Part shown: piece by piece, positions 15,249 through 25,191 of the stretch
Numbering within the stretch: the stretch's first letter is position 1
Layout: each line of letters starts with the position of its first letter
NCBI GenBank assembly: GCA_963833985.1
Contig: CAWIAD010000002.1
Coordinates: forward strand, 4,704,001 to 4,768,000
DNA length: 64,000 nt
Direction of reading: 5' to 3'
Origin: an uncultured Planctomycetaceae bacterium
GTDB taxonomy: Bacteria > Planctomycetota > Planctomycetia > Isosphaerales > Isosphaeraceae
Notes under the pieces: generated by a model
Databases searched by the model: none
Told to the model about the DNA's origin: nothing
The model's input: only the letters and a program-made list of their open reading frames with translations
Translations under genes and position numbers: made by a program

Positions 15249-16166
15249 ATGCTGCCATCGGGATTGCTTTCCACCAGGGAGTTGACCAAGGCTTATGGAG
15301 ACTTCATCGCGTTGCGGCAGCTTTCGCTGGACGTGAGGCAAGGCGAAGTTTTCGGGCTGCTTGGTCCCAACGGCTCGGGCAAGACGACGACGATCCGGCT
15401 GCTCCTGGGGCTCTTGCGTCCCACGCAGGGCTCCGCGAGCATTTTTGGGCTCGACTGCTGGCGGCAGAGTGTGCAGGTCCGCCGGCTGGTCTCGTACCTG
15501 CCTGGCGAATTGCGGATGTACGGATCGATGACGGGACTGGCCGTCTTGCGCTTCCTTTCCGACCTCCGCGACGGCGACGGTATCGACAGGGCGGTCGCCA
15601 TCGCCGAGCAGGTGATGGCGCTGAATCTGAACAAGAAGGTGCGTGCCTATTCCACGGGCATGAAGCAGAAACTGGCACTCGCCCTGGCGTTCTCTGACCC
15701 TGTGGACATCCTCATTCTCGATGAACCGACCTCGGCGCTGGACCCGTCGGCCCGCGGAGACGTGCTGCGACTGGTACGCGAGGCGCGATCGCAGGGGCAG
15801 ACCGTGATCTTCTCCGGCCACGTCCTCTCGGAGGTGGAGGCGGTCGCTGATCGCGTGGCCATCCTGCGCCGGGGTCGCCTCATGCACATCGAGGACATGC
15901 ACGCCCGGCGCAGCCTGCGGATGCTCTTGATCCGGTTCGCCAACGAGGTCCCGGCCGCGCTCCCGGCGGAACTCGATCTCGCGATCCGGGAACAGAACGG
16001 CACGACCCTCTTGCTGGAGCATCGCGGTCCGCTCGGTCCCCTGCTGCACTGGCTGAGCGTCGAGCCGGTCGCCGACCTCGCCATCGGCACCGAGGACCTG
16101 TCGAGCCTTTACAACCAGTATCACGGGGCCGAGGCTAAAGACGACGACATGGAGCCGCTGCTGTGA
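15249..16166 (+). CDS. ABC transporter ATP-binding protein
   Basis: Walker A GPNGSGKTT, signature YSTGMKQKL, Walker B ILILDEPT, H-loop SGH. Confidence 0.95.
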   Translation: MLPSGLLSTRELTKAYGDFIALRQLSLDVRQGEVFGLLGPNGSGKTTTIRLLLGLLRPTQGSASIFGLDCWRQSVQVRRLVSYLPGELRMYGSMTGLAVLRFLSDLRDGDGIDRAVAIAEQVMALNLNKKVRAYSTGMKQKLALALAFSDPVDILILDEPTSALDPSARGDVLRLVREARSQGQTVIFSGHVLSEVEAVADRVAILRRGRLMHIEDMHARRSLRMLLIRFANEVPAALPAELDLAIREQNGTTLLLEHRGPLGPLLHWLSVEPVADLAIGTEDLSSLYNQYHGAEAKDDDMEPLL

Positions 16167-16999
16167 GACCTTTCTTCGCGTTATTGCGCAAGCACCTGCA
16201 CGACACGCGCGGCACCCTGGCCCTCTCCGGGGCCGTGCTCTTTGCCCTCGGCTGGCTGTTCGTCTTCGTGACCTCGCTGAACGAGGCCGAGATCCTCAAG
16301 GCGCTCGCCTCGGAGGGTGAAGAAAGCCGCTTCCGGTGGATCCGGAACCTGGGCCTGGCCGAGCAGCCGTCGTCCGTCTCGATCATGATGAGCTTCTGGG
16401 CCCATCCCTTCATCATCGCGATCATCGGCTTCTGGGCCATCGGGCGCGGCTCGATTGCCGTCGGTGCCGAGGTGGAGCGCGGCACGCTCGACCTGATCCT
16501 CTCCCGGCCGGTCTCGCGCAGCTCGTACCTGCTGAGCCACGTGCTGATGGCCATTTGCGGACTGCTGGTGCTGGGCCTTGCCCTGGCCTGCGGAGCCCGC
16601 GTTGGCGCCCACTACAACTTCCTCCGCGTTCCCATCGATACCTGGACGCTCGTCAAGCCCGCGTTCAACCTGGCCGTGCTGGGCCTGCCGATCTACGGCT
16701 ACACGCTGCTGGCGTCGTCGCTCGATCACGTCCGCTGGCGTCCCATGATGTTCGGATCCGCGCTGACGATGGCCATGTTCATCGCCTGGGTGGTCTCGGT
16801 GATCCCGGTCCTCCAGAAGTACACCTGGCGAAGCTATCTCGAGCGAGTGACGATCTTCAAGCTTTACAACCCCGTCGACGCCGTCACCACCGCCGAGAAG
16901 CTCAACTTCAACCTTGCCGTCCTCGCCGCCCTCGGCCTGGCCTGCGTCATCCTCGCCTTCCTTGCCTTCGTGCGCCGCGACCTGCCGGCGAACGGATAA
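16163..16999 (+). CDS. ABC-2 type transporter permease
   Basis: About six TM segments, the motif EVERGTLDLILSRPVSR, a C-terminal FVRRDL, and a 4-bp overlap with the ATPase. Confidence 0.9.
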   Translation: MRPFFALLRKHLHDTRGTLALSGAVLFALGWLFVFVTSLNEAEILKALASEGEESRFRWIRNLGLAEQPSSVSIMMSFWAHPFIIAIIGFWAIGRGSIAVGAEVERGTLDLILSRPVSRSSYLLSHVLMAICGLLVLGLALACGARVGAHYNFLRVPIDTWTLVKPAFNLAVLGLPIYGYTLLASSLDHVRWRPMMFGSALTMAMFIAWVVSVIPVLQKYTWRSYLERVTIFKLYNPVDAVTTAEKLNFNLAVLAALGLACVILAFLAFVRRDLPANG

Positions 17000-17060
17000 A
17001 CGAAGGCGACGGCGCGCTTTGGCTCACGCAATTCCCGGGAAATCCGTACCGAGGGGCGGA

Positions 17061-17120
17061 CGGGGTCAGACCCCGCGAAGCAGGTCTGACCCCGCAAAGC
17101 AGACTCCGCGAAGCAGGGGT
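17061..17120. repeat. REP-like palindrome (family A: GGGGTCAGACC…GGTCTGACCCC) with three GAC(C/T)CCGC(G/A)AAGCA units
   Basis: Inverted pair at 17062-17072 and 17083-17093. Direct units end in AAGCA at 17082, 17101 and 17115. Confidence 0.7.
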
Positions 17121-17385
17121 GCGGTGCCGGAATGAGAATGGACTTGCGTCGCTGATCCTCGTTTTGCGTTTTGGTACACTGAATAGGTTGGATCGGAGAT
17201 TGAACTTCGAGTTTCGTCATGGGGCGCGCTTTGCGCTGCAAGGAAATCGCCATCCGGACCGACCGGTACCATCATCACGTCCAATGGACCGACCCGCGTA
17301 TTCATGAGCAGAAAAGGAAGGCGCTTTGGCGACCCGGCTCGATAGGGACAACTGAGACGGCCCGAGAATCGAGGAGGCAAGCGAG

Positions 17386-17826
17386 ATGGCAACAGGGGAT
17401 GTCAGGGCGACGGACCTGCCGCCGGAGGTCGACAACTGGCTGGAGCTACTGAATGGTTTAGTAGATAACGTCAAGACATGGGCGGAGGCAGCCGGTTGGG
17501 AGACCCGCCTGACCGGCAGGGACGTTCACGAAAACGGTGTCGTCCGATACGAGGTCCCGGTCCTGGTGCTGAACCGCGACGAAGCCGAGGTCTCGCTGGT
17601 CCCCGTTGCCCGCAAGGTTCCCGGGGCCGATGGCCTGGTCGACTTCTATTTGATGCCAGACTTCGACGACGTGGCCAGCCTCTACCGGGAAACAGGCCAG
17701 TGGTTCTTTCACTACGCTTTCCACCCCGACCCGAGGGAGACCCATTCGGTGATCGAGACCGAACGGTTCCTCCTGGACGAAGCAAGCCTCATTCGCGTGC
17801 TGAACGACATCGCCGCCCATGCCTAA
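17386..17826 (+). CDS. Hypothetical protein, acidic, coupled to the downstream HEPN-like gene
   Basis: RBS GAGGAGG. The stop codon overlaps the next start (ATGCCTAA). No family motif recognised. Confidence 0.8.
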   Translation: MATGDVRATDLPPEVDNWLELLNGLVDNVKTWAEAAGWETRLTGRDVHENGVVRYEVPVLVLNRDEAEVSLVPVARKVPGADGLVDFYLMPDFDDVASLYRETGQWFFHYAFHPDPRETHSVIETERFLLDEASLIRVLNDIAAHA

Positions 17827-18301
17827 CCTCTACAGCGTGCGGTTCAAAATCGACGAGGCGTTCGCCGAGTACAAGGTTGCTTTGACGGCGCTGACCCGCT
17901 TCCAGGCGGGCGTCCAGAGCGCCCAGCCGGATTTCTCGTTGCCCAAAGGGACGCAGCCGCACCACCTCGACCGGGCTGTCGAGGAACTGGAAGGCACGTA
18001 CCTGATCCGGATGTGGGCTGTTTTCGAAGCGGCCTGGGTGTCGTTCTGGCGGCACCACTCCGGCCGTCTGGGCACAATCAAGGCGATGCATCTGATCCAG
18101 TGGGCGCAAGGTGTCGAGGAGGGCCACAAGGCTGCCGACGATGTCACGGACGACGTCGACCGGGTCCGCCTGTACCGGAACTTCCTGGTTCACGGCGATA
18201 ACCTGGCACCGCGCGTGGCTATCGGGGACGCCAAGAAGTACCTCAACAGGCACCTTGTCAAGCTACCCGACCACTGGCCCGGGGCGGACGACGACGACTG
18301 A
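17819..18301 (+). CDS. Putative HEPN-superfamily RNase
   Basis: Helical 160-aa protein with YLIRMWAVFE (conserved Glu helix) and RNFLVH (R-x4-H). Confidence 0.65.
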   Translation: MPNLYSVRFKIDEAFAEYKVALTALTRFQAGVQSAQPDFSLPKGTQPHHLDRAVEELEGTYLIRMWAVFEAAWVSFWRHHSGRLGTIKAMHLIQWAQGVEEGHKAADDVTDDVDRVRLYRNFLVHGDNLAPRVAIGDAKKYLNRHLVKLPDHWPGADDDD

Positions 18302-18391
18302 TCTCCCGGTTGACACACGTCAAGAGACGCAACCCTTCGCCCGCATTTCTCACTCATATCATTCGGACTGAGTTGAGGCAGTGCGGCAGAT

Positions 18392-18426
18392 GGGGTCTGG
18401 CAGATATGGTCTGACCCCGTGAAGCA
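18392..18426. repeat. REP-like element (family A), a direct copy of the 17083-17101 motif
   Basis: GGGGTC…GACCCC stem. GGTCTGACCCCGTGAAGCA matches GGTCTGACCCCGCAAAGCA at 17 of 19 positions. Confidence 0.7.
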
Positions 18427-18430
18427 TTAA

Positions 18431-18506
18431 TCTCCGCGTACCTGGCGGAGAAAGAACTTGTCCATGCGGAGGATAGGTGCTATTATGTCCGCAGAGAATG
18501 CGGAGA
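18431..18506 (+). promoter_or_regulatory. Sigma70 promoter of fic flanked by two palindromic operators
   Basis: -35 TTGTCC (18458-18463), 17-bp spacer, extended -10 TGcTATTAT (hexamer at 18481-18486). Operators are TCTCCGC-N7-GCGGAGA (18431-18451) and TGTCCGC-N7-GCGGAGA (18486-18506). Confidence 0.7.
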
Positions 18507-18512
18507 ATAGCG

Positions 18513-19637
18513 ATGTACATCCACCAAAGAGACGATTGGCCCAGGTTCCACTGGGATCCAGAAGGGCTGGCAAACCTGCTTGCGGCGGTTCGTCATCGCC
18601 AGGGCCGGCTCATCGGTCGGATGGAAGGGCTCGGCTTTCAACTCCGCGAGGAGGCGGTGTTGAGCACCCTGACGCAGGACGTCCTGAAATCGAGCGAGAT
18701 CGAAGGCGAAATCCTCGACGTCGAGCAGGTTCGCTCATCCCTCGCCCGCCGACTTGGACTCGATATTGGCGCACTGACGCCCGCCGATCGTCATGTCGAA
18801 GGCGTGGTCGAGTTGATGCTCGATGCCACCCGGCGATACGAAGAACCACTGAGCGAGGAACGTCTATGCGGCTGGCACGCCGCCCTCTTCCCGACCAGGC
18901 GCAGCGGGATGCAGAAAATCCGGGTCGGTGACTGGCGGGACGACGCTGCTGGCCCGATGCAGGTCGTCTCAGGCGCAATCGGCAAGGAACGGGTCCATTA
19001 CCAGGCGCCGCCAGCCGACCGGCTGTCGGCCGAGATGTCGCAGTTCCTGGAATGGTTCAATGACTCGGGGACGATCGACCCGGTCCTCAAAGCCGCCGAG
19101 GCTCATCTCTGGTTCGTCACCATTCACCCTTTCGACGACGGAAATGGGCGCATCGCCCGAGCCATCGCCGATCTGGCCCTGGCACGGTCGGAGCAAAGTC
19201 CGAATCGCTTCTACAGCATGTCTGCGCAGATCCGGCTGGAGCGAGGCGATTATTACGGCATCCTGGAACAGACCCAGAAAGGTTCGCTCGATATCACGGC
19301 GTGGATGCGGTGGTTCCTCGGCTGCCTCGATCGCGCATTCGACGGAGCGGAGGCCACGCTCGGCCACGTGCTCCGAAAAGCGCGGTTCTGGGAAGTTCAC
19401 GCCGGGGAATCGTTCAACGACCGGCAGCGGAAAATCGTCAATCGGCTGATGAACGGATTCGAGGGCAAGCTCACGTCGTCGAAGTGGGCAAAACTGGCCA
19501 GGTGCTCACAGGATACAGCCAGCCGCGATATCAACGACCTGATCAAACGCCGAGTGCTCGCGAAGAATGATGCCGGTGGCCGGAGCACCAGCTATTCGCT
19601 CATCGAGCCGGCCGCGAAGAGCGAACCAGGGCCATGA
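18513..19637 (+). CDS. Fic-family protein (N-terminal DUF4172-like region, C-terminal HTH)
   Basis: Catalytic HPFDDGNGRIAR. The N-terminus is YIHQRDDWPRF, with an SSEIEGE inhibitory-type motif. The C-terminus has SQDTASRDINDL…GGRSTSY. Confidence 0.95.
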   Translation: MYIHQRDDWPRFHWDPEGLANLLAAVRHRQGRLIGRMEGLGFQLREEAVLSTLTQDVLKSSEIEGEILDVEQVRSSLARRLGLDIGALTPADRHVEGVVELMLDATRRYEEPLSEERLCGWHAALFPTRRSGMQKIRVGDWRDDAAGPMQVVSGAIGKERVHYQAPPADRLSAEMSQFLEWFNDSGTIDPVLKAAEAHLWFVTIHPFDDGNGRIARAIADLALARSEQSPNRFYSMSAQIRLERGDYYGILEQTQKGSLDITAWMRWFLGCLDRAFDGAEATLGHVLRKARFWEVHAGESFNDRQRKIVNRLMNGFEGKLTSSKWAKLARCSQDTASRDINDLIKRRVLAKNDAGGRSTSYSLIEPAAKSEPGP

Positions 19638-20400
19638 TCACCGGAATGACATATGGGGCGTATGGGGTCCGGGCGGATCGGGTCCGGGGCGGATGCTCCC
19701 GCGGTTCATCGCGTGGTACACCAGACCGTCGTCGGTGGCACGAGGAAGACGTCTCATGATGCCCGTGTTACGGCGAGATGCGGGCTTGCGTCAAGAAAAA
19801 TGAACTGACACGAATTCCTCCCATGATCACCGGAATGACATATGGGGCGTATGGGGTCCGGGCGGATCGGGTCCGGGGCGGATGCTCCCGCGGTTCATCG
19901 CGTGGTACACCAGACCGTCGTCGGTGGCACGAGGAAGACGTCTCATGATGCCCGTGTTACGGCGAGATGCGGGCTTGCGTCAAGAAAAATGAACTGACAC
20001 GAATTCCTCCCCGGCGAGATGCGGGCTTGCGTCAAGAAAAATGAACTGACACGAATTCCTCCCCGTCAAGAAAAATGAACTGACACGAATTCCTCCGTGG
20101 GGCGTATGGGGTCCGGGCGGATCGGGTCCGGGGCGGATGCTCCCGCGGTTCATCGCGTGGTACACCAGACCGTCGTCGGTGGCACGAGGAAGACGTCTCA
20201 TGATGCCCGTGTTACGGCGAGATGCGGGCTTGCGTCAAGAAAAATGAACTGACACGAATTCCTCCCCGGCGAGATGCGGGCTTGCGTCAAGAAAAATGAA
20301 CTGACACGAATTCCTCCCCGTCAAGAAAAATGAACTGACACGAATTCCTCCGTCAAGAAAAATGAACTGACACGAATTCCTCCCGACACGAATTCCTCCC
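19632..20400. repeat. Nested tandem array with 8 full copies and 1 partial copy of GTCAAGAAAAATGAACTGACACGAATTCCTCC (REP-like family B)
   Basis: Copies start at 19790, 19979, 20031, 20065, 20234, 20286, 20320 and 20352, with a partial copy at 20385. Duplication periods are 189, 52, 34, 255, 32 and ~16 bp. Confidence 0.95.
19698..20201 (-). pseudogene. Three copies of a 5' fragment of a REP-associated tyrosine (Y1/HUH) transposase
   Basis: MRRLPRATDDGLVYHAMNRG starts at 19757, 19946 and 20201. It matches the typical RAYT N-terminus (MPRxxR…G.xYH.xNRG) and is truncated right after NRG. Confidence 0.7.
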
Positions 20401-20474
20401 GTTACGGCTAGGAAACGGCTCTGCACAAAGGGGATTATTTCCCCCTATCTTTCCTTGCCTAGGCTCTGGCGGCC

Positions 20475-20515
20475 TTGTCAAAGGCCCCGGAGCATGTTAG
20501 CATTGAATTCGATGC
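20475..20515 (+). promoter_or_regulatory. TA operon promoter with an overlapping palindromic operator
   Basis: -35 TTGTCA (20475-20480), 17-bp spacer, -10 TAGCAT (20498-20503) with an upstream TG. The palindrome GCATTGAATTCGATGC (20500-20515) matches at 14 of 16 positions. Confidence 0.65.
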
Positions 20516-20545
20516 GTTGACGATGCGACTTAGCAGAAGGTATTT

Positions 20546-20842
20546 ATGGACATTGACCGCGACATTCATCCACTCACCGATTTCAAGCGAAACACCTCCC
20601 ATTTCGTTTCACAACTGAAGGAAACCGGCCAACCCCTCGTCCTCACCATCAACGGCAAGGCGGAGCTGGTCGTGCAGGATGCCGCTTCCTATCAAAAATT
20701 GGCTGACCTCGCCGAGCGGCTGGAGACCATCCAGGCCGTCAAAGACAGCCTGGCCTCCATTGACCGGGGTGAAGGCACAGCGATGGACGAAGTATTCGAC
20801 GCACTGGAGAAGCGGATCAGACAGCCAAAGGCCCGTCCGTGA
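20546..20842 (+). CDS. Phd/YefM-family antitoxin
   Basis: IHPLTDFKRNT…LKETGQPLVLTINGKAELVVQDAASYQ. Confidence 0.9.
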   Translation: MDIDRDIHPLTDFKRNTSHFVSQLKETGQPLVLTINGKAELVVQDAASYQKLADLAERLETIQAVKDSLASIDRGEGTAMDEVFDALEKRIRQPKARP

Positions 20843-21189
20843 GCTTCCGCGTCGTCGTCCAGCCGCGTGCGGAAAAGGACCTACTCGACGCCGCCAGTTT
20901 CCTGCTCGACCGCAGCAAGTGATCGACCATCGCTCTTCGGTGGTAACGCGGCATCCGGGGGAAAATCAACACTCTTAAGACCAGCCCGCACCGCTGCCCG
21001 GTCGATCCCGACTCGGCGGCCTACGGCTCAGAGGTTCGTGTGCCGCTCTACGGCAAACGGCAAGGCGTCTATCGCGTTCTCTTCACGATACGTGGCAACA
21101 CCGTCTTTGTCCTGACCGTGCGGCATTCAGCCCAGCGTCGCCTTACAGACGACATCGACCAGGACGACGAGCAAGGCACGCCGCATTGA
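20839..21189 (+). pseudogene. ParE/RelE-family toxin pseudogene (two in-frame stops)
   Basis: GTGA overlap with the antitoxin. It reads MSFRVVVQPRAEKDL…SK*STIALRW*RGIRGKINTLKTSPHRCP…GVYRVLFTIRGNTVFVLTVRHSA, with stops at 20920-20922 (TGA) and 20944-20946 (TAA). Confidence 0.85.
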
Positions 21190-21504
21190 CGTAGGGGCTC
21201 TCACTGAGCAGTCAACGGACTGACTCTCCCCTAGCAGAACCCGCTTCTGCCATTGCTGGCACCCCGCCATCCAGGCGGCCGCGTGCTCACGGGGTACGCT
21301 TCGCTTCCGTCCCTGCGGGACCGGCTACGCCGCCCTTCCGCCCGCTGGTGCGTGGTCGTTCACCGGCGACCGCCACGCCCGGCCCCGGCGTACCGTGGCC
21401 GTTCATGCCGGCCGCTTATCGGTTCACTGAAGGAAGCGTGTCGTTTTTTGCTCGTCCCGGCCCCATTGAACATGGGGGGCCGGTCCGGCAAAGAGGGAAA
21501 TTGG

Positions 21505-23520
21505 GCCGGGTCGCCCTGGGGGATTGCTCCCCCGGGGCTCCCACAGATCCAGACGTGCGGATTTCCCGCATCTGGCTCGTCACCTCATGTCGCTGCGCGG
21601 CCCAGCAGACTGTGAACCACACGGGCCGGGGGCAGGCAGTATTGCCGTTCCAAGCGCACGAAGTCCGACCACGGTAGCGGTTTCCCCCGGCGACGCCGGG
21701 ACAGCCATCGTTTCCAGATCGCTCGCGCTCCCCGAAGGAAGTTTTGGAGACTCGCAAAGTTACCGATGATCCCGTAGTACCCGTAGTGGCCTTGCAGCTT
21801 CTGTTTGAGTGTCTGGTGCTGAACCGGAATCGGTTGATGCCGATTGACTCGGCACCACTCCGACAACGCTTGAAACGCTCGCTTGAGTCGGTTCCTCGCC
21901 GTCTTGCGCTTGATCACCCAGCCGCCTTTCCGACTTCGACCCCAGTAATGGGTGAAGCCCAGGAAGTCGAATGTCTTGGGCAAGGAGGATTCTCCTGCCT
22001 TCGTTTCGGAGTCGTCAGGATCATCCGGGTGGAACCGAACGAGCCGTGTCTTCTCCGGGTGAGCGGTCAAGCCGTACTTGCTCATCCGCTTGGGTAACAC
22101 GTCCATGATTCGCCGGGCGTCGTCTTCTCGGACTGTCCCGATCACGAAGTCGTCCGCATAGCGGATCACGAAAGCCTCCCCCTTCAGACGAGGTCGAACC
22201 TCCTGGTCGAACCATTCGTCGAGCACGTAGTGCAAGAACAGATTCGAAATCAAGGGGCTGAGAACCCCGCCTTGTGGCGCACCGTGTTCGGGAGTCGTGT
22301 GGACTCCGTCCTCCAGCACTCCAGCATTGAGCCATTTACCGATCAATCGCAGGATCACACCATCGCGCACCCGTCGCTTGAGGAACTCCCGTAGATGGCC
22401 ATGGTCAATCGTGTCGAAAAACTTTCGAAGATCAACGTCCACGATCCAGCGGCATCCCAGGTTCATCGCCCGCTTCCACAGAGAATCCAGGGCTCCGTGA
22501 GCGCCCCGTCCGGGACGGAAGCCGTGTGAGGCGTCCAAGAAGTCCGCCTCGTACACCGGCTCCAACACCATCAGGACCGCACGCTGGAGGATCTTGTCCT
22601 CGAACGTGGGAATCCCCAGCGGGCGGGTCTCGCCAGGCGAGCCTGCCTTGGGAATATTCACTCGTCGCACGGGCGGGGCCACGTACGTGCCGGACTTCGC
22701 GCGGTTGAGGAGGTCCTGAAGGTTGCCCTTCAGGTTGGTCTCGTAATCCTCCGCGGTCTGTCCGTCCACGCCGACGGCTCCATCCTTGCGGGTTAGAGCA
22801 TAGGCCTTGCGTAGCCAGAGGATGTCGATGTGATGCGCCAGGTTCGTGAAGGACATGTCCGGAGCGTTCCTGGCGAGTTCCGCGATCCGTTGTTGTTTTG
22901 TGTACACGGTCTCAGGTCTCGGCGTACCTGGCATGTTTCCCTCCAACGGTTCATGAGACGGCGTCCCCTTCCCTCCCCGGGGTCCATTCGGGCTAGTTCC
23001 CCCGGTTCCTCGGTACTATGAGACGCTCCGACTCCCTGCCGTCCATCTCGCCGCACTTCGTTTCCTTCGCTTGGCGATACCATCGTTTCGTCCCCGGTTC
23101 GTCCCCACAGCTTGGGACCTAGCTATGGATCATCCTGGAGTTGGTAAGCCGGGCTCCCGCCGGCACTTTACGATGGAGACGACAGGGTCTCCCAAGTTCC
23201 CAGAGGATCCCTTGTGATCATTCGCCCTGTTCTCCGACCCCGGCGTGACCAGGCAGGCTGAGTGGACCACGGGTTAGTTGCCTGGCGCGGCCCCCGCGTC
23301 TGACAAGGACGAGGGCTCACCACGAGGAGATTTCGGGGCTCAATCGCACGGCGTTTGATCTGGCTGTCTACGCTTCGCAGGGGTGGTTGCCCACCACCAC
23401 GCAAGACTCGCTTCCGGCTGCTGGTCCAGCTCTGCCGGACGGGATTGGCTACCCGCAGGGTTCCCTACGAAAGGGTTCAAGTTTGTGGCTATCCTCCCTT
23501 CCTGAGCTTCCTTGGCGCAA
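21505..23520 (-). mobile_element. Complete group II intron (IIB-like ribozyme, 2016 nt)
   Basis: The 5' end is TTGCGCC at 23520. Domain V is GAGCCAGATGCGGGAAATCCGCACGTCTGGATC (21578-21546). Domain VI has a bulged A and ends CGACCCGGC at 21505. The EBS1 loop is at 23300-23305. Removing the element restores a palindrome. Confidence 0.9.
21585..22946 (-). CDS. ltrA: Group II intron reverse transcriptase/maturase (no endonuclease domain)
   Basis: GVDG, IPK…RPLGIPTFEDKILQ, SHGFRPGR, PQGGVLSPLISNLFLH, RYADDF, FDFLGF, X-domain LQGHYGYY. 453 aa with no HNH. Confidence 0.97.
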   Translation of the reverse strand: MEGNMPGTPRPETVYTKQQRIAELARNAPDMSFTNLAHHIDILWLRKAYALTRKDGAVGVDGQTAEDYETNLKGNLQDLLNRAKSGTYVAPPVRRVNIPKAGSPGETRPLGIPTFEDKILQRAVLMVLEPVYEADFLDASHGFRPGRGAHGALDSLWKRAMNLGCRWIVDVDLRKFFDTIDHGHLREFLKRRVRDGVILRLIGKWLNAGVLEDGVHTTPEHGAPQGGVLSPLISNLFLHYVLDEWFDQEVRPRLKGEAFVIRYADDFVIGTVREDDARRIMDVLPKRMSKYGLTAHPEKTRLVRFHPDDPDDSETKAGESSLPKTFDFLGFTHYWGRSRKGGWVIKRKTARNRLKRAFQALSEWCRVNRHQPIPVQHQTLKQKLQGHYGYYGIIGNFASLQNFLRGARAIWKRWLSRRRRGKPLPWSDFVRLERQYCLPPARVVHSLLGRAAT

Positions 23521-23580
23521 TGTCAGTTCACTTTTCGTAGGATAAATGAACTGACACCGGTTTCTTGACACCGGTTTCTT
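23521..23580. repeat. REP-like inverted doublet (family B), left arm cut by the intron, with a 14-bp end duplication
   Basis: TGTCAGTTCA-N16-TGAACTGACACCGGTTTCT is followed by a second TGACACCGGTTTCT. Confidence 0.85.
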
Positions 23581-23624
23581 GCGGCGCAACGCGAATGAGT
23601 CGGGTTCTCCGGAGACGGGCAAAC

Positions 23625-24077
23625 TCACTGGGGATAGATGACGGACAGACCTTGTAGCCTGGCGACTTCGCAGAGCCTTTCGTCGGCACATACGAAGCAA
23701 TCCATCGCTACGGGATCCCGGATCGACAACGCCACGGCAAGCTGTATCGCGTCAAGCGAATGAATCTGTCTCACTTTCCCATGAACGGCGATCAATTCGC
23801 CCGCCGACTCAAAGTGCGAGTTGAGTATCCGGATGGGCACGAACACGCGGTCTCGGATATCGGCGAAAAACCGCGCCGCCAGCCGATCGAATTCCGTGTC
23901 GGAAATCAGTCCAGTCCGTACCTTCTTCGCGAAGACCGAGAGCACCTCGGTCAGCGTCAACCTTGAGCCTGAGTAGGTTGATGTGGGTTCCCGGAGCAAT
24001 TGAGCCACCGTGTGTGATCCCGGCTCATCGTGGTACCGCTTCACCACAGCGCTCGCGTCGAAGAAGAAATCTGGCAT
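23625..24077 (-). CDS. vapC: VapC/PIN-domain toxin
   Basis: FFDASAVVKRY…E…LTEV…SLDAIQLAVA…FVCADERL, the acidic PIN motifs. Confidence 0.92.
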   Translation of the reverse strand: MPDFFFDASAVVKRYHDEPGSHTVAQLLREPTSTYSGSRLTLTEVLSVFAKKVRTGLISDTEFDRLAARFFADIRDRVFVPIRILNSHFESAGELIAVHGKVRQIHSLDAIQLAVALSIRDPVAMDCFVCADERLCEVARLQGLSVIYPQ

Positions 24078-24386
24078 CTACGATCGGTACTCTCTCTCTT
24101 CGATGACAGCCTGGCTCATTGAACCGGGGATCTTCGAGAGCATTCGGCGGACTTCCTCGACCGAGGGTATCTCCCGGCCTTCCAGTTCGCGAGTGCAATA
24201 GGCTATGGCCTCGTGATCCACGGCGGCTTTCGATTCGGATCCCAAGCCCGTGTCAGTTCCGCGCTGATCCTCCCGGCAAAAACGGCGCAAGGCTTCTTGA
24301 AGCACAGCCTCTTCAGTGGGGAAATCGCCGCTCTGAACCTTGCGGCGAACAAATTCCCGTAGCTCGATGGTCAAGGTCACATCCAC
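24078..24386 (-). CDS. Ribbon-helix-helix antitoxin (ParD/CC2985-like N-terminus)
   Basis: VTLTIELREFVRRKVQSGDFPTEEAVLQEALR. The stop abuts the vapC start. Confidence 0.8.
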   Translation of the reverse strand: MDVTLTIELREFVRRKVQSGDFPTEEAVLQEALRRFCREDQRGTDTGLGSESKAAVDHEAIAYCTRELEGREIPSVEEVRRMLSKIPGSMSQAVIEEREYRS

Positions 24387-24658
24387 TGGTCAGCTCCTTG
24401 CTTTTCAAACCAGGCGCCTTGCACGCCCATTTCCAGGATACGAGGCGAGGCAAGGGACCGAATAGTAACCCTGCTCGCGGTCCGCCCCCAGGTCTGGCCA
24501 CATCCCCACCTTCCGCTTCATCCTCTTGATTCAGCAGCGGCGCTGGTTCAGACTGGAATGGTAGACCGCGCTGCCACGGCGCAGCACGGCGATCCTCCCG
24601 GCCGCTCCCTTGCTCACGAGGCGGAGGGCGACCCTCACCGTGGAGGTCCAGTGCGACG

Positions 24659-25191
24659 ATGGCCGAGATCTCTCGGAAAGCAACGTCGGCCGAGAGCAAT
24701 GGGGCGCATCCCAGCGGCGATAACCGCTTCAAGATGCTCGACGCCACCATGAAGCGGCAACGCTTTCAGCCAGACGCCCTGATCGAGGTGCTGCACACCG
24801 CGCAGGAGCTTTTTGGCTACCTTCAGGACGACATCCTTTTGTACGTCGCCCACGGGCTCAAGCTGCCGCCCAGCCGGGTCTACGGCGTGGCCACGTTTTA
24901 TCACTTCTTCACGTTCACGCCCAAGGGCAAGCACACCTGCGTCGTCTGCATGGGCACCGCCTGCTACGTGAAGGGGGGAGAGACGCTGCTGGCCACTGTG
25001 CGTGCCTGCGCGGGGCGGGAGAATCGTGATTCCGCCGGCGATGTGCCTTTCGTCTCGGTCGATACGGCGCGCTGCCTGGCGCTTGCGGCCTGGCGCCGGT
25101 GGTTGTCTTCGACGGCGAGGTTTGCGGCACGGTCTCGCCGCGGGTGGCCGAGGCCCGCATGAAGGGATGGCTGGACCATGGACCTGATTGA
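24659..25191 (+). CDS. hoxE: Bidirectional hydrogenase subunit HoxE (apparent 1-bp frameshift near 25080)
   Basis: [39 protein letters not shown] continues as (G)[12 protein letters not shown] in another frame ending at 25191. Confidence 0.88.

Follow-up and report, generated by a model that had tools for sequence, protein, structure and literature searches.

Terminal inverted repeats of two TIRtron families lie at most joints of a toxin-antitoxin-type island in a planctomycete genome

We analysed a stretch of 64,000 nucleotides (the window; G000:C2:4704001-4768000) from the 10.2-Mb, 65% GC genome of an uncultured Isosphaeraceae bacterium, here called G000; other G-numbers denote relatives. 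Between an ABC-2 permease gene, which ends at 16999, and the hoxE side lies an island of about 7.4 kb made up of toxin-antitoxin (TA)-type modules, short repeats, the 5' remnant of a Y1 gene and a group II intron. The initial annotation had read the repeats as repetitive extragenic palindromes (REPs) served by a REP-associated tyrosine transposase (RAYT), and had proposed that they build an integron-like array of TA cassettes. Its module order and coordinates were reproduced by domain, RNA and open reading frame (ORF) searches. The repeats, judged from their sequence, are instead the terminal inverted repeats (TIRs) of two families of TIRtrons, with only ends and the 5' remnant present in the window. 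TIRtrons consist of a Y1/HUH gene (TIRYT) between TIRs that have a GGGGWSAS-like core, as set out in the part of Di Nocera et al. 2013 (PMC3733652) used here. The features are listed below in window positions.

16163-16999 (+): ABC-2 permease, the left conserved flank (PF12679); hoxE is directly next in G004 and G008
17053-17115 (+): TIR-A1, a miniature family-A element with overlapping inverted cores and two partial right-end re-copies (hairpin z -2.8)
17165-18301 (+): module 1, with its promoter edge at 17165, where homology begins in G075 and G060, ORF1 at 17386-17826 and ORF2 at 17819-18301
18385-18425 (+): TIR-A2, a second family-A mini element, co-directional with A1, its right tail ending 5 bp before the Fic operator
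18431-19637 (+): module 2, an operator/promoter and fic (ORF from 18513), with DUF4172 and Fic domains (PADLOC SoFic, E 3e-44)
19632-20400 (+): family-B stutter array, in which one fixed outer edge is present nine times (self-comparison)
19654-19684 (+): TIR-A3, the third A copy, diverged and truncated on the right, which is fused to the TIRYT remnant (19/24 match to A2)
19685-19821 (-): left end of a family-B TIRtron: its TIR, its promoter and the first 23 codons of the Y1 gene (sequence identity)
20416-20447 (+): site of the 11-6-11 tyrosine-recombinase type (res/dif-like), diverged in its left arm (sequence comparison)
20498-21189 (+): module 3a, an operator, phd (20546-20842; PF02604) and a parE pseudogene (20839-21189)
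21258-21493 (+): module 3b, a conserved non-coding element, 75-84% identical in relatives, cut off at a TIR tail
21494-21504 (+): left tail of a family-B mini element, which is also the intron 3' exon (sequence)
21505-23520 (-): group II intron with a reverse transcriptase (RT) ORF (21585-22946), inserted in a TIR core (Rfam, RVT_1)
23521-23581 (+): rest of the family-B mini element, an inverted doublet and one right-end re-copy (hairpin z -4.3; sister at C2:2303k)
23625-24386 (-): module 4, vapC (23625-24077; PIN domain) and an RHH/ParD-like antitoxin gene (24078-24386; TIGR02606)
24519-25162 (+): hoxE and its upstream region, the right conserved flank (PF01257); relatives' homology resumes at 24519

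The DNA downstream of the permease was fetched from eight genus relatives and compared with the window. The site is empty in two of them (G004 and G008, where hoxE directly follows the permease), and in the remaining six the permease is followed by other DNA. Linkage to hoxE on the far side was traced in G009, where 19.3 kb separates it from the permease; in G011, G006, G003, G010 and G002 the comparison covered the DNA next to the permease. The fill of G010 includes IS110. That of G009 contains two Y1 genes with inverted ends (TIRtrons) and an A-type repeat array, together with a non-TA cargo of acyltransferase, ankyrin, OsmC, porin and kinase genes; no TA match was present among its 23 scanned ORFs. 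The comparison confirms the island as real, and the permease-hoxE site is a recurrent hot spot. Each module was also found alone elsewhere in relatives, where homology extends from the promoter/operator through the stop codon, and TIRs stand at five of the six module boundaries of the island.

The evidence that these repeats are TIRtron ends comes from their cores, their copies and the genes that they flank. Neither family contains the GTAG tetranucleotide, so the repeats are not REPs of the GTAG type; the GTAG REPs that this genome does have are found around other Y1 genes. The family-A core (GGGGTCAG) matches GGGGWSAS exactly and the family-B core (GGTGTCAG) is one base off this TIRtron consensus (PMC3733652, in the part used). 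The B repeat AATGAACTGACAC occurs 49 times in the genome against 0.1 expected, an excess well beyond chance. Family B has 51 sites in ten clusters, of which two are chance matches in coding regions and two are outward-facing arrays around intact 240-aa Y1 genes (C2:2427k and C2:3099k). An intact transposase gene with cognate repeats, for which the initial annotation had suggested a search, is present twice, and for family B an enzyme is available in trans. The B remnant in the island is 92.8% and 91.6% identical to these two copies, in keeping with its original description as a RAYT 5' end. Both intact proteins conserve HFH and Y-x3-NP and belong to PF01797 (NF047646, 74 bits against a cut-off of 80); the B-type enzyme gave no helix-turn-helix (HTH) match. 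Family A is supported by its distribution, being present in 10 of the 13 genomes of the genus and in 8 of 107 from the rest of the family, and not by its number here, where REP-A occurs 8 times against 4.5 expected and is not over-represented. Its three family hits in G000 all lie inside the island, and A3-like sites number ten genome-wide. A cognate A-type gene is seen in G002 (L471), where a Y1 domain and a DnaA-type HTH (Bac_DnaA_C) are encoded between inverted A repeats, and an A array precedes a Y1 gene in G010. Flanking inverted repeats of at least 14 nt were found in 49 of 80 metagenome homologues, close TIRYT relatives in 77 of the 120 genomes of the family, and matches to the TIR-B motif in named genomes mostly in Planctomycetota, including Isosphaeraceae and Gemmataceae.

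Comparison with described Y1 systems is consistent with this assignment, each of the cited papers being drawn on in part. As described for TIRtrons, TIRs are found singly, paired as dimers and clustered; fixed-edge stutter arrays, joints of accessory modules and TA neighbours, all seen here, do not figure in the portion of the TIRtron text consulted (PMC3733652). Quentin et al. 2018 (PMC6006769, in part) tentatively equate the TIRtron/TIRYT class with TnpA-Y1 subclass 2.1. The A-type enzyme of G002 resembles that subclass in joining Y1 to a Bac_DnaA_C HTH. The subclass is described as having a C-terminal HTH (DnaA_C, HTH_23 or HTH_28), to which the 240-aa B-type enzyme gave no match. The REPtron/TnpAREP-BIME system (Ton-Hoang et al. 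2012, PMC3333891, in part) shares HUH nicking, strand transfer in trans, local repeat amplification and a proposed sequestering of genes; unlike it, the island lacks a GTAG-tagged hairpin, its repeats are the inverted ends of an element, and whole TIRtrons occur as near-identical local copies.

The stutter array consists of re-copied family-B ends. Its units measure 189, 52, 34, 169, 52, 34, 32 and 16 bp and start at variable inner points with no more than 2 nt of microhomology. Nine copies sharing one fixed outer edge are the mark of an enzyme cutting and joining there. Since the 189-bp unit contains the 3' end of fic and A3, DNA outside the element has been re-copied in place. Other TIRtrons show similar one-ended re-copying of the 5' end (G004, 175 bp; G124, 237 bp; G000, 557 bp), and both intact TIRtrons, like the TIRs of many relatives, are flanked by comparable stutter arrays whose copies have diverged. 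Several junctions are tight: the A2 tail lies 5 bp from the Fic operator, the end of Fic homology lies 0-20 bp from A3, and the non-coding element lies 0-1 bp from the mini-B tail. Overall, three junction sides fall within 5 bp of the point where homology to relatives ends. At A3 a one-ended TIRtron piece is joined to another TIR, and at C2:6401.7k a fragment of a PIN gene breaks off at a TIR tail, as cargo-blind cutting predicts. The bracketed architecture recurs in relatives: in G090 module 1 is enclosed by TIR stutters that share one direction, in G014 Fic by direct TIR-like repeats, and in G003 a UPF0175 module by direct copies of A. We conclude that the repeats are real joints between unrelated DNAs, as the initial annotation had supposed.

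Some further TIRtron loci were considered in this connection and set aside. Tandem TIRtron copies in G009, G060, G122 and G124 were rejected as evidence of capture and look like local hops. A 1.1-kb triplication in G005 was rejected as a clean TIR-bounded unit; it has a TIR-ended unit inside, and its boundary is not clean. In that genome, positions 3450-5800 of L467 (G005:C33) hold tandem 1.1-kb units, about 91% identical, each with an A-type TIR end and a small unnamed ORF. Separately, at 3080-4500 of L472 (G002:C38), two internally deleted A-type TIRtron copies of about 400 bp bracket a 0.8-kb gene-bearing segment.

Module 3 has a different origin from what the term cassette would suggest. 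The dead ParE beside Phd stands as first described, parE carrying two in-frame stops with a weak ParE match in its distal piece. Upstream of phd, the 11-6-11 site has near-identical counterparts in 17 of 120 family genomes. Among 24 loci with this site, a tyrosine recombinase lies within 1.5 kb in 14 and TA genes in 7, and in G110 site, phd and parE follow one another in an order and spacing equal to those of the window. The site is likely a plasmid resolution site. On the other side of parE, the 235-bp module 3b element is present in many family genomes and adjoins integrase, ParA, RepA and TA clusters in relatives (including L024, L025, L192 and L204). It had no Rfam match and could be a transfer origin, a replication origin or an RNA. 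Three relatives remain weakly alike for about 45 nt beyond the point where the element stops at the TIR, and with a strict detector the long non-coding interval from parE to the element showed no TIR. The res-like site together with the plasmid-type non-coding element marks module 3 as a cut piece of a plasmid stability region. At least this one 'cassette' is a plasmid stability fragment between two TIR-B tails and not a tidy cassette. The early statement that no integrase or attC site was visible stands for the integrase, none being found among the island ORFs, and is not quite accurate for att-type sites in general, given 20416-20447 and the plasmid-type element at 21258-21493. The 11-6-11 architecture and the TA genes adjoining it in relatives recall the pdif modules of Acinetobacter (PMC6449649, in the part used), from which our site differs in arm sequence and in usually being single and beside its own tyrosine recombinase. 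Flanking by dif-like sites on both sides was not found, the island having a single site. The planctomycete 11-6-11 site has the spacer AGGGGA (loci L427, L428 and L528-L550). In G024:C59, two same-strand copies of it lie 5.6 kb apart, a hint of pdif-like modules.

We also asked how often TIRs and TA genes are neighbours. Of 80 B-motif loci 51 were kept, with 22 non-planctomycete or doubtful and 7 overlapping loci left out, as were the two chance coding-region matches among the ten B clusters and three duplicate IS110 loci. Flanks were 1.8 kb for B loci and 1.5 kb for controls, A-type loci were partly chosen for clustering and not randomly, 11 of 52 IS110 neighbour ORFs went unscanned, and genes were called with our own codon model, by which small genes can be missed. 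TA genes were found near 15 of 86 TIR-motif loci (10/51 B and 5/35 A) compared with 1 of 56 RAYT/IS110 loci (p 0.005, a value overstated by the non-independence of kin genomes and by the wider flanks of the B loci); with Uma2 counted, the numbers were 19/86 and 3/56. Outside the window, three of six B loci lay near PIN, ParE, DUF433 or Phd genes, compared with 78 of 3760 gaps and 6 of 148 GTAG-REP loci. A genome-wide TIR detector, tuned after the TA flanks had been seen, placed 10 of 73 loci near TA genes (gaps, 78/3760); a case at C2:1719809, where the start of uvrB was taken for a TIR, shows that the TIR detector has false positives.

Other tests gave little sign of an association. No TA gene was found at 71 of the 86 TIR loci, and 39 of 48 TA loci in G000 lack a TIR. 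TA families tested blind in this genome (MazF, HicA, Gp49 and MNT) lay near TIR loci in 0 of 19 cases, as did GNAT controls (0/19), and a blind test of Uma2 gave 3/49 (p 0.17). No single motif dominated in an unbiased k-mer screen of TA flanks, nor did these flanks show an enrichment of the plain GGKGWSAS motif (15/48 vs 245/715). Intact TIRYT genes in relatives were TA-linked in only 1 of 29 cases. Around homologues of the island modules TIRs were recorded at 2 of 75 flanks, against 1 of 104 for controls, with the strict detector, which misses A2 and A3 in the window so that its counts are lower bounds; by eye, about 7 of 38 loci were flanked. An enrichment of TA loci in this genome was likewise seen around GTAG-type REPs (5/48 vs 67/2048, p 0.02), and around the major repeat families overall (16/48 vs 287/2048). 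The link between TA genes and TIRs is therefore moderate and not specific, and the checks that the initial annotation had set for itself came out mixed to negative, the blind set and the large TA-free majority of TIR loci standing against the cross-genome excess.

Taken together, we think it probable, with some reserve, that the island is a TIRtron landing pad at which a TIRYT encoded elsewhere cut and rejoined DNA at fixed outer edges, blind to its cargo, and so spliced accessory pieces of unrelated origin. Acting in trans, the enzyme would nick single-stranded DNA at the outer edge of a tail and at looser inner sites, and the freed unit would be joined to an existing TIR edge. On a small scale such events would leave stutters; on the scale of genes they would either bring in a module with its TIR or remove DNA adjoining an inserted end. 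Modules of the TA type are abundant in plasmid DNA and hard to lose. TA genes would then dominate the island because incoming plasmid stability DNA is rich in them and addictive modules resist loss, and not through selection by the enzyme. For TnpAREP, cleavage at a distance of more than 400 nt from its site and recombination in vitro are described, and the authors put forward a sequestering of flanking genes (PMC3333891, in the part used); by analogy, TIRYT may behave similarly in distant nicking and joining. Several observations weigh against the landing-pad account. Four junction sides show wider gaps (about 50 bp between A1 and module 1, 39-64 bp between module 1 and A2, 15-26 bp between the B array and the res-like site, 44 bp between mini-B and vapC), and homology edges favour promoter and stop, a bias expected because those regions are conserved anyway. 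No TIR was found on the right side of module 4, no cognate A enzyme in G000, and no assay of TIRYT activity in the literature searched. Nor was a gene-sized passenger unit with the same TIR edge found twice: the sole candidate, a 989-bp tandem duplication at C2:1719809 taken for a TIR-started gene-carrying unit, was rejected because its 'TIR' is the start of uvrB in relatives. A bolder proposal, possible though we hold it doubtful, is that one TIR end suffices to mobilise the DNA inward of it, which would move as a single-stranded unit and enter at the outer edge of a second TIR. Such integrase-free HUH capture would stack TA and defence modules much as an integron does, and the stutters would be its smallest products.

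The landing-pad account has to be set against three others. The site could be an ordinary hot spot, filled by plasmid integration, resolvase-site recombination or illegitimate joining, into whose spare non-coding DNA TIRs hopped later. Unrelated DNA at the site in six of eight relatives (IS110 in G010 among it), the habit of TIRtrons to hop locally in one direction, the enrichment of TA loci near GTAG REPs and other major repeats, and the res-like site as the mark of another route for module 3 all speak for it. We nevertheless consider it unlikely, as the DNA on the two sides of mini-B is not continuous with the non-coding element, TIRs occupy five of six boundaries and three junction sides coincide to within 5 bp with homology edges. 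A dedicated integron-like system, in which TIRs are cassette recombination points and TA or defence modules travel as circles of gene plus TIR, would account for the shared direction of A1, module 1, A2, Fic and A3, for modules with their own promoters, for the excess of TA genes near TIR loci (15/86 vs 1/56; B loci, 3/6 vs 78/3760) and for the bracketed modules of G090, G014 and G003. It is quite unlikely nonetheless: most TIR loci are TA-free and most TA loci here TIR-free, the blind tests (0/19, and 3/49 for Uma2) and the module homologues (2/75 vs 1/104) gave no clear excess, intact TIRYT genes are hardly ever TA-linked (1/29), the cargo of G009 is non-TA, module 3 is a plasmid fragment, and a platform of enzyme plus primary site is lacking. 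TA-specific capture of the kind first proposed is thus not upheld. Finally, the 100% identity of the 255-bp and 189-bp copies could mean that the 19632-20400 array is partly an assembly artefact, with the rest of the island left standing, but diverged copies make up the comparable arrays beside both intact TIRtrons and beside the TIRs of many relatives, and this is very improbable.

Integrons combine IntI, attI and attC and hold runs of small self-contained modules, many of them TA, with co-oriented repeats between. The island is like them in being a run of such modules separated by co-oriented repeats, and unlike them in that its spacers are TIRtron ends, its modules mostly occur elsewhere without a spacer and its cargo includes fragments; no integron integrase was found among its ORFs. 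We found no description, in the open literature searched, of TIRtrons as joints of TA islands or of a RAYT/TIRYT-TA cassette system, and Bertels et al. (PMC5581495), in the part of the text used, mention TA systems only as background. TIRYTs are very common yet little studied, only two works in the literature searched naming them, and this locus offers a testable cut site in the fixed outer edge, intact enzymes in the same genome and splice joints. If TIRYTs do move flanking genes, their part in building accessory and defence islands has been overlooked; otherwise the locus is an ordinary hot spot that bears the scars of a small transposon.

The group II intron lies inside the B doublet, where the initial annotation had placed it. 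Its RNA matched RF00029 and RF02005 above the gathering score, and domains V/VI, the I-IV RNA and the RT ORF of a group II intron are all present. Complementarity links a loop of domain I to 6 nt of the 5' exon, and at all four relatives' loci inspected the homologues occupy TIR-like ends. The intron is a later visitor that splits the TIR core. Members of this intron family (L002, L007, L008 and L021) end in GGC and not in the usual AY, and the sister mini element at C2:2303k holds a short 5' intron remnant.

Of the remaining modules, module 1 is a two-gene family without a name, for which 66 and 36 homologues were found. A model of ORF1 (pLDDT 86) matched CyaY/frataxin (Z 9.0, rmsd 2.9, 95 aligned), and a CyaY/frataxin-like fold is predicted on this basis. 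ORF2 likely encodes a HEPN-type nuclease: an R-N-x3-H motif (R120, N121, H125) is invariant across 27 sequences and the Atlas lead was to HEPN (0.86), the two observations behind the HEPN label. Pfam, PADLOC, NCBIfam and PDB sequence searches returned no match; the structure model had a pLDDT of 46, and its fold search was uninformative. The pair is a candidate new TA or defence pair. In L171 (G043) a short inverted-repeat element with a GGGAC core is apparently inserted in an ORF2 homologue. For module 2, homology at seven relatives' loci begins at 18431-18457, and by eye Fic homologues adjoin tRNA- and tmRNA-like sequence in two cases. Sigma70-like promoters precede fic and phd, and their inverted-repeat operators are conserved in relatives, in support of the earlier claim that at least two modules have a promoter and operator of their own. 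As read from the sequence, Phd-ParE and RHH-VapC have the layout of type II TA systems (antitoxin and toxin in one operon with an operator), parE being a pseudogene and the module 4 antitoxin matching ParD/RHH-like TIGR02606 below its cut-off.

A few observations concern the flank and the rest of the genome. The hoxE gene (24659-25162) shows an apparent frame change near its 3' end, possibly an assembly error, and its Pfam match stops at profile position 115 of 145. Uma2 genes number 61 copies above the cut-off in G000, with recent tandem duplications at C2:5676198-5678822, C2:2060839-2063008, C1:2728141-2729674 and C2:3406587-3408038, one unit ending in tRNA-like sequence. Another Y1-like family of about 350 aa, with more than ten copies and A-rich stuttering ends, is seen, for example, at C2:3955385, C2:3199110 and C1:3168050.

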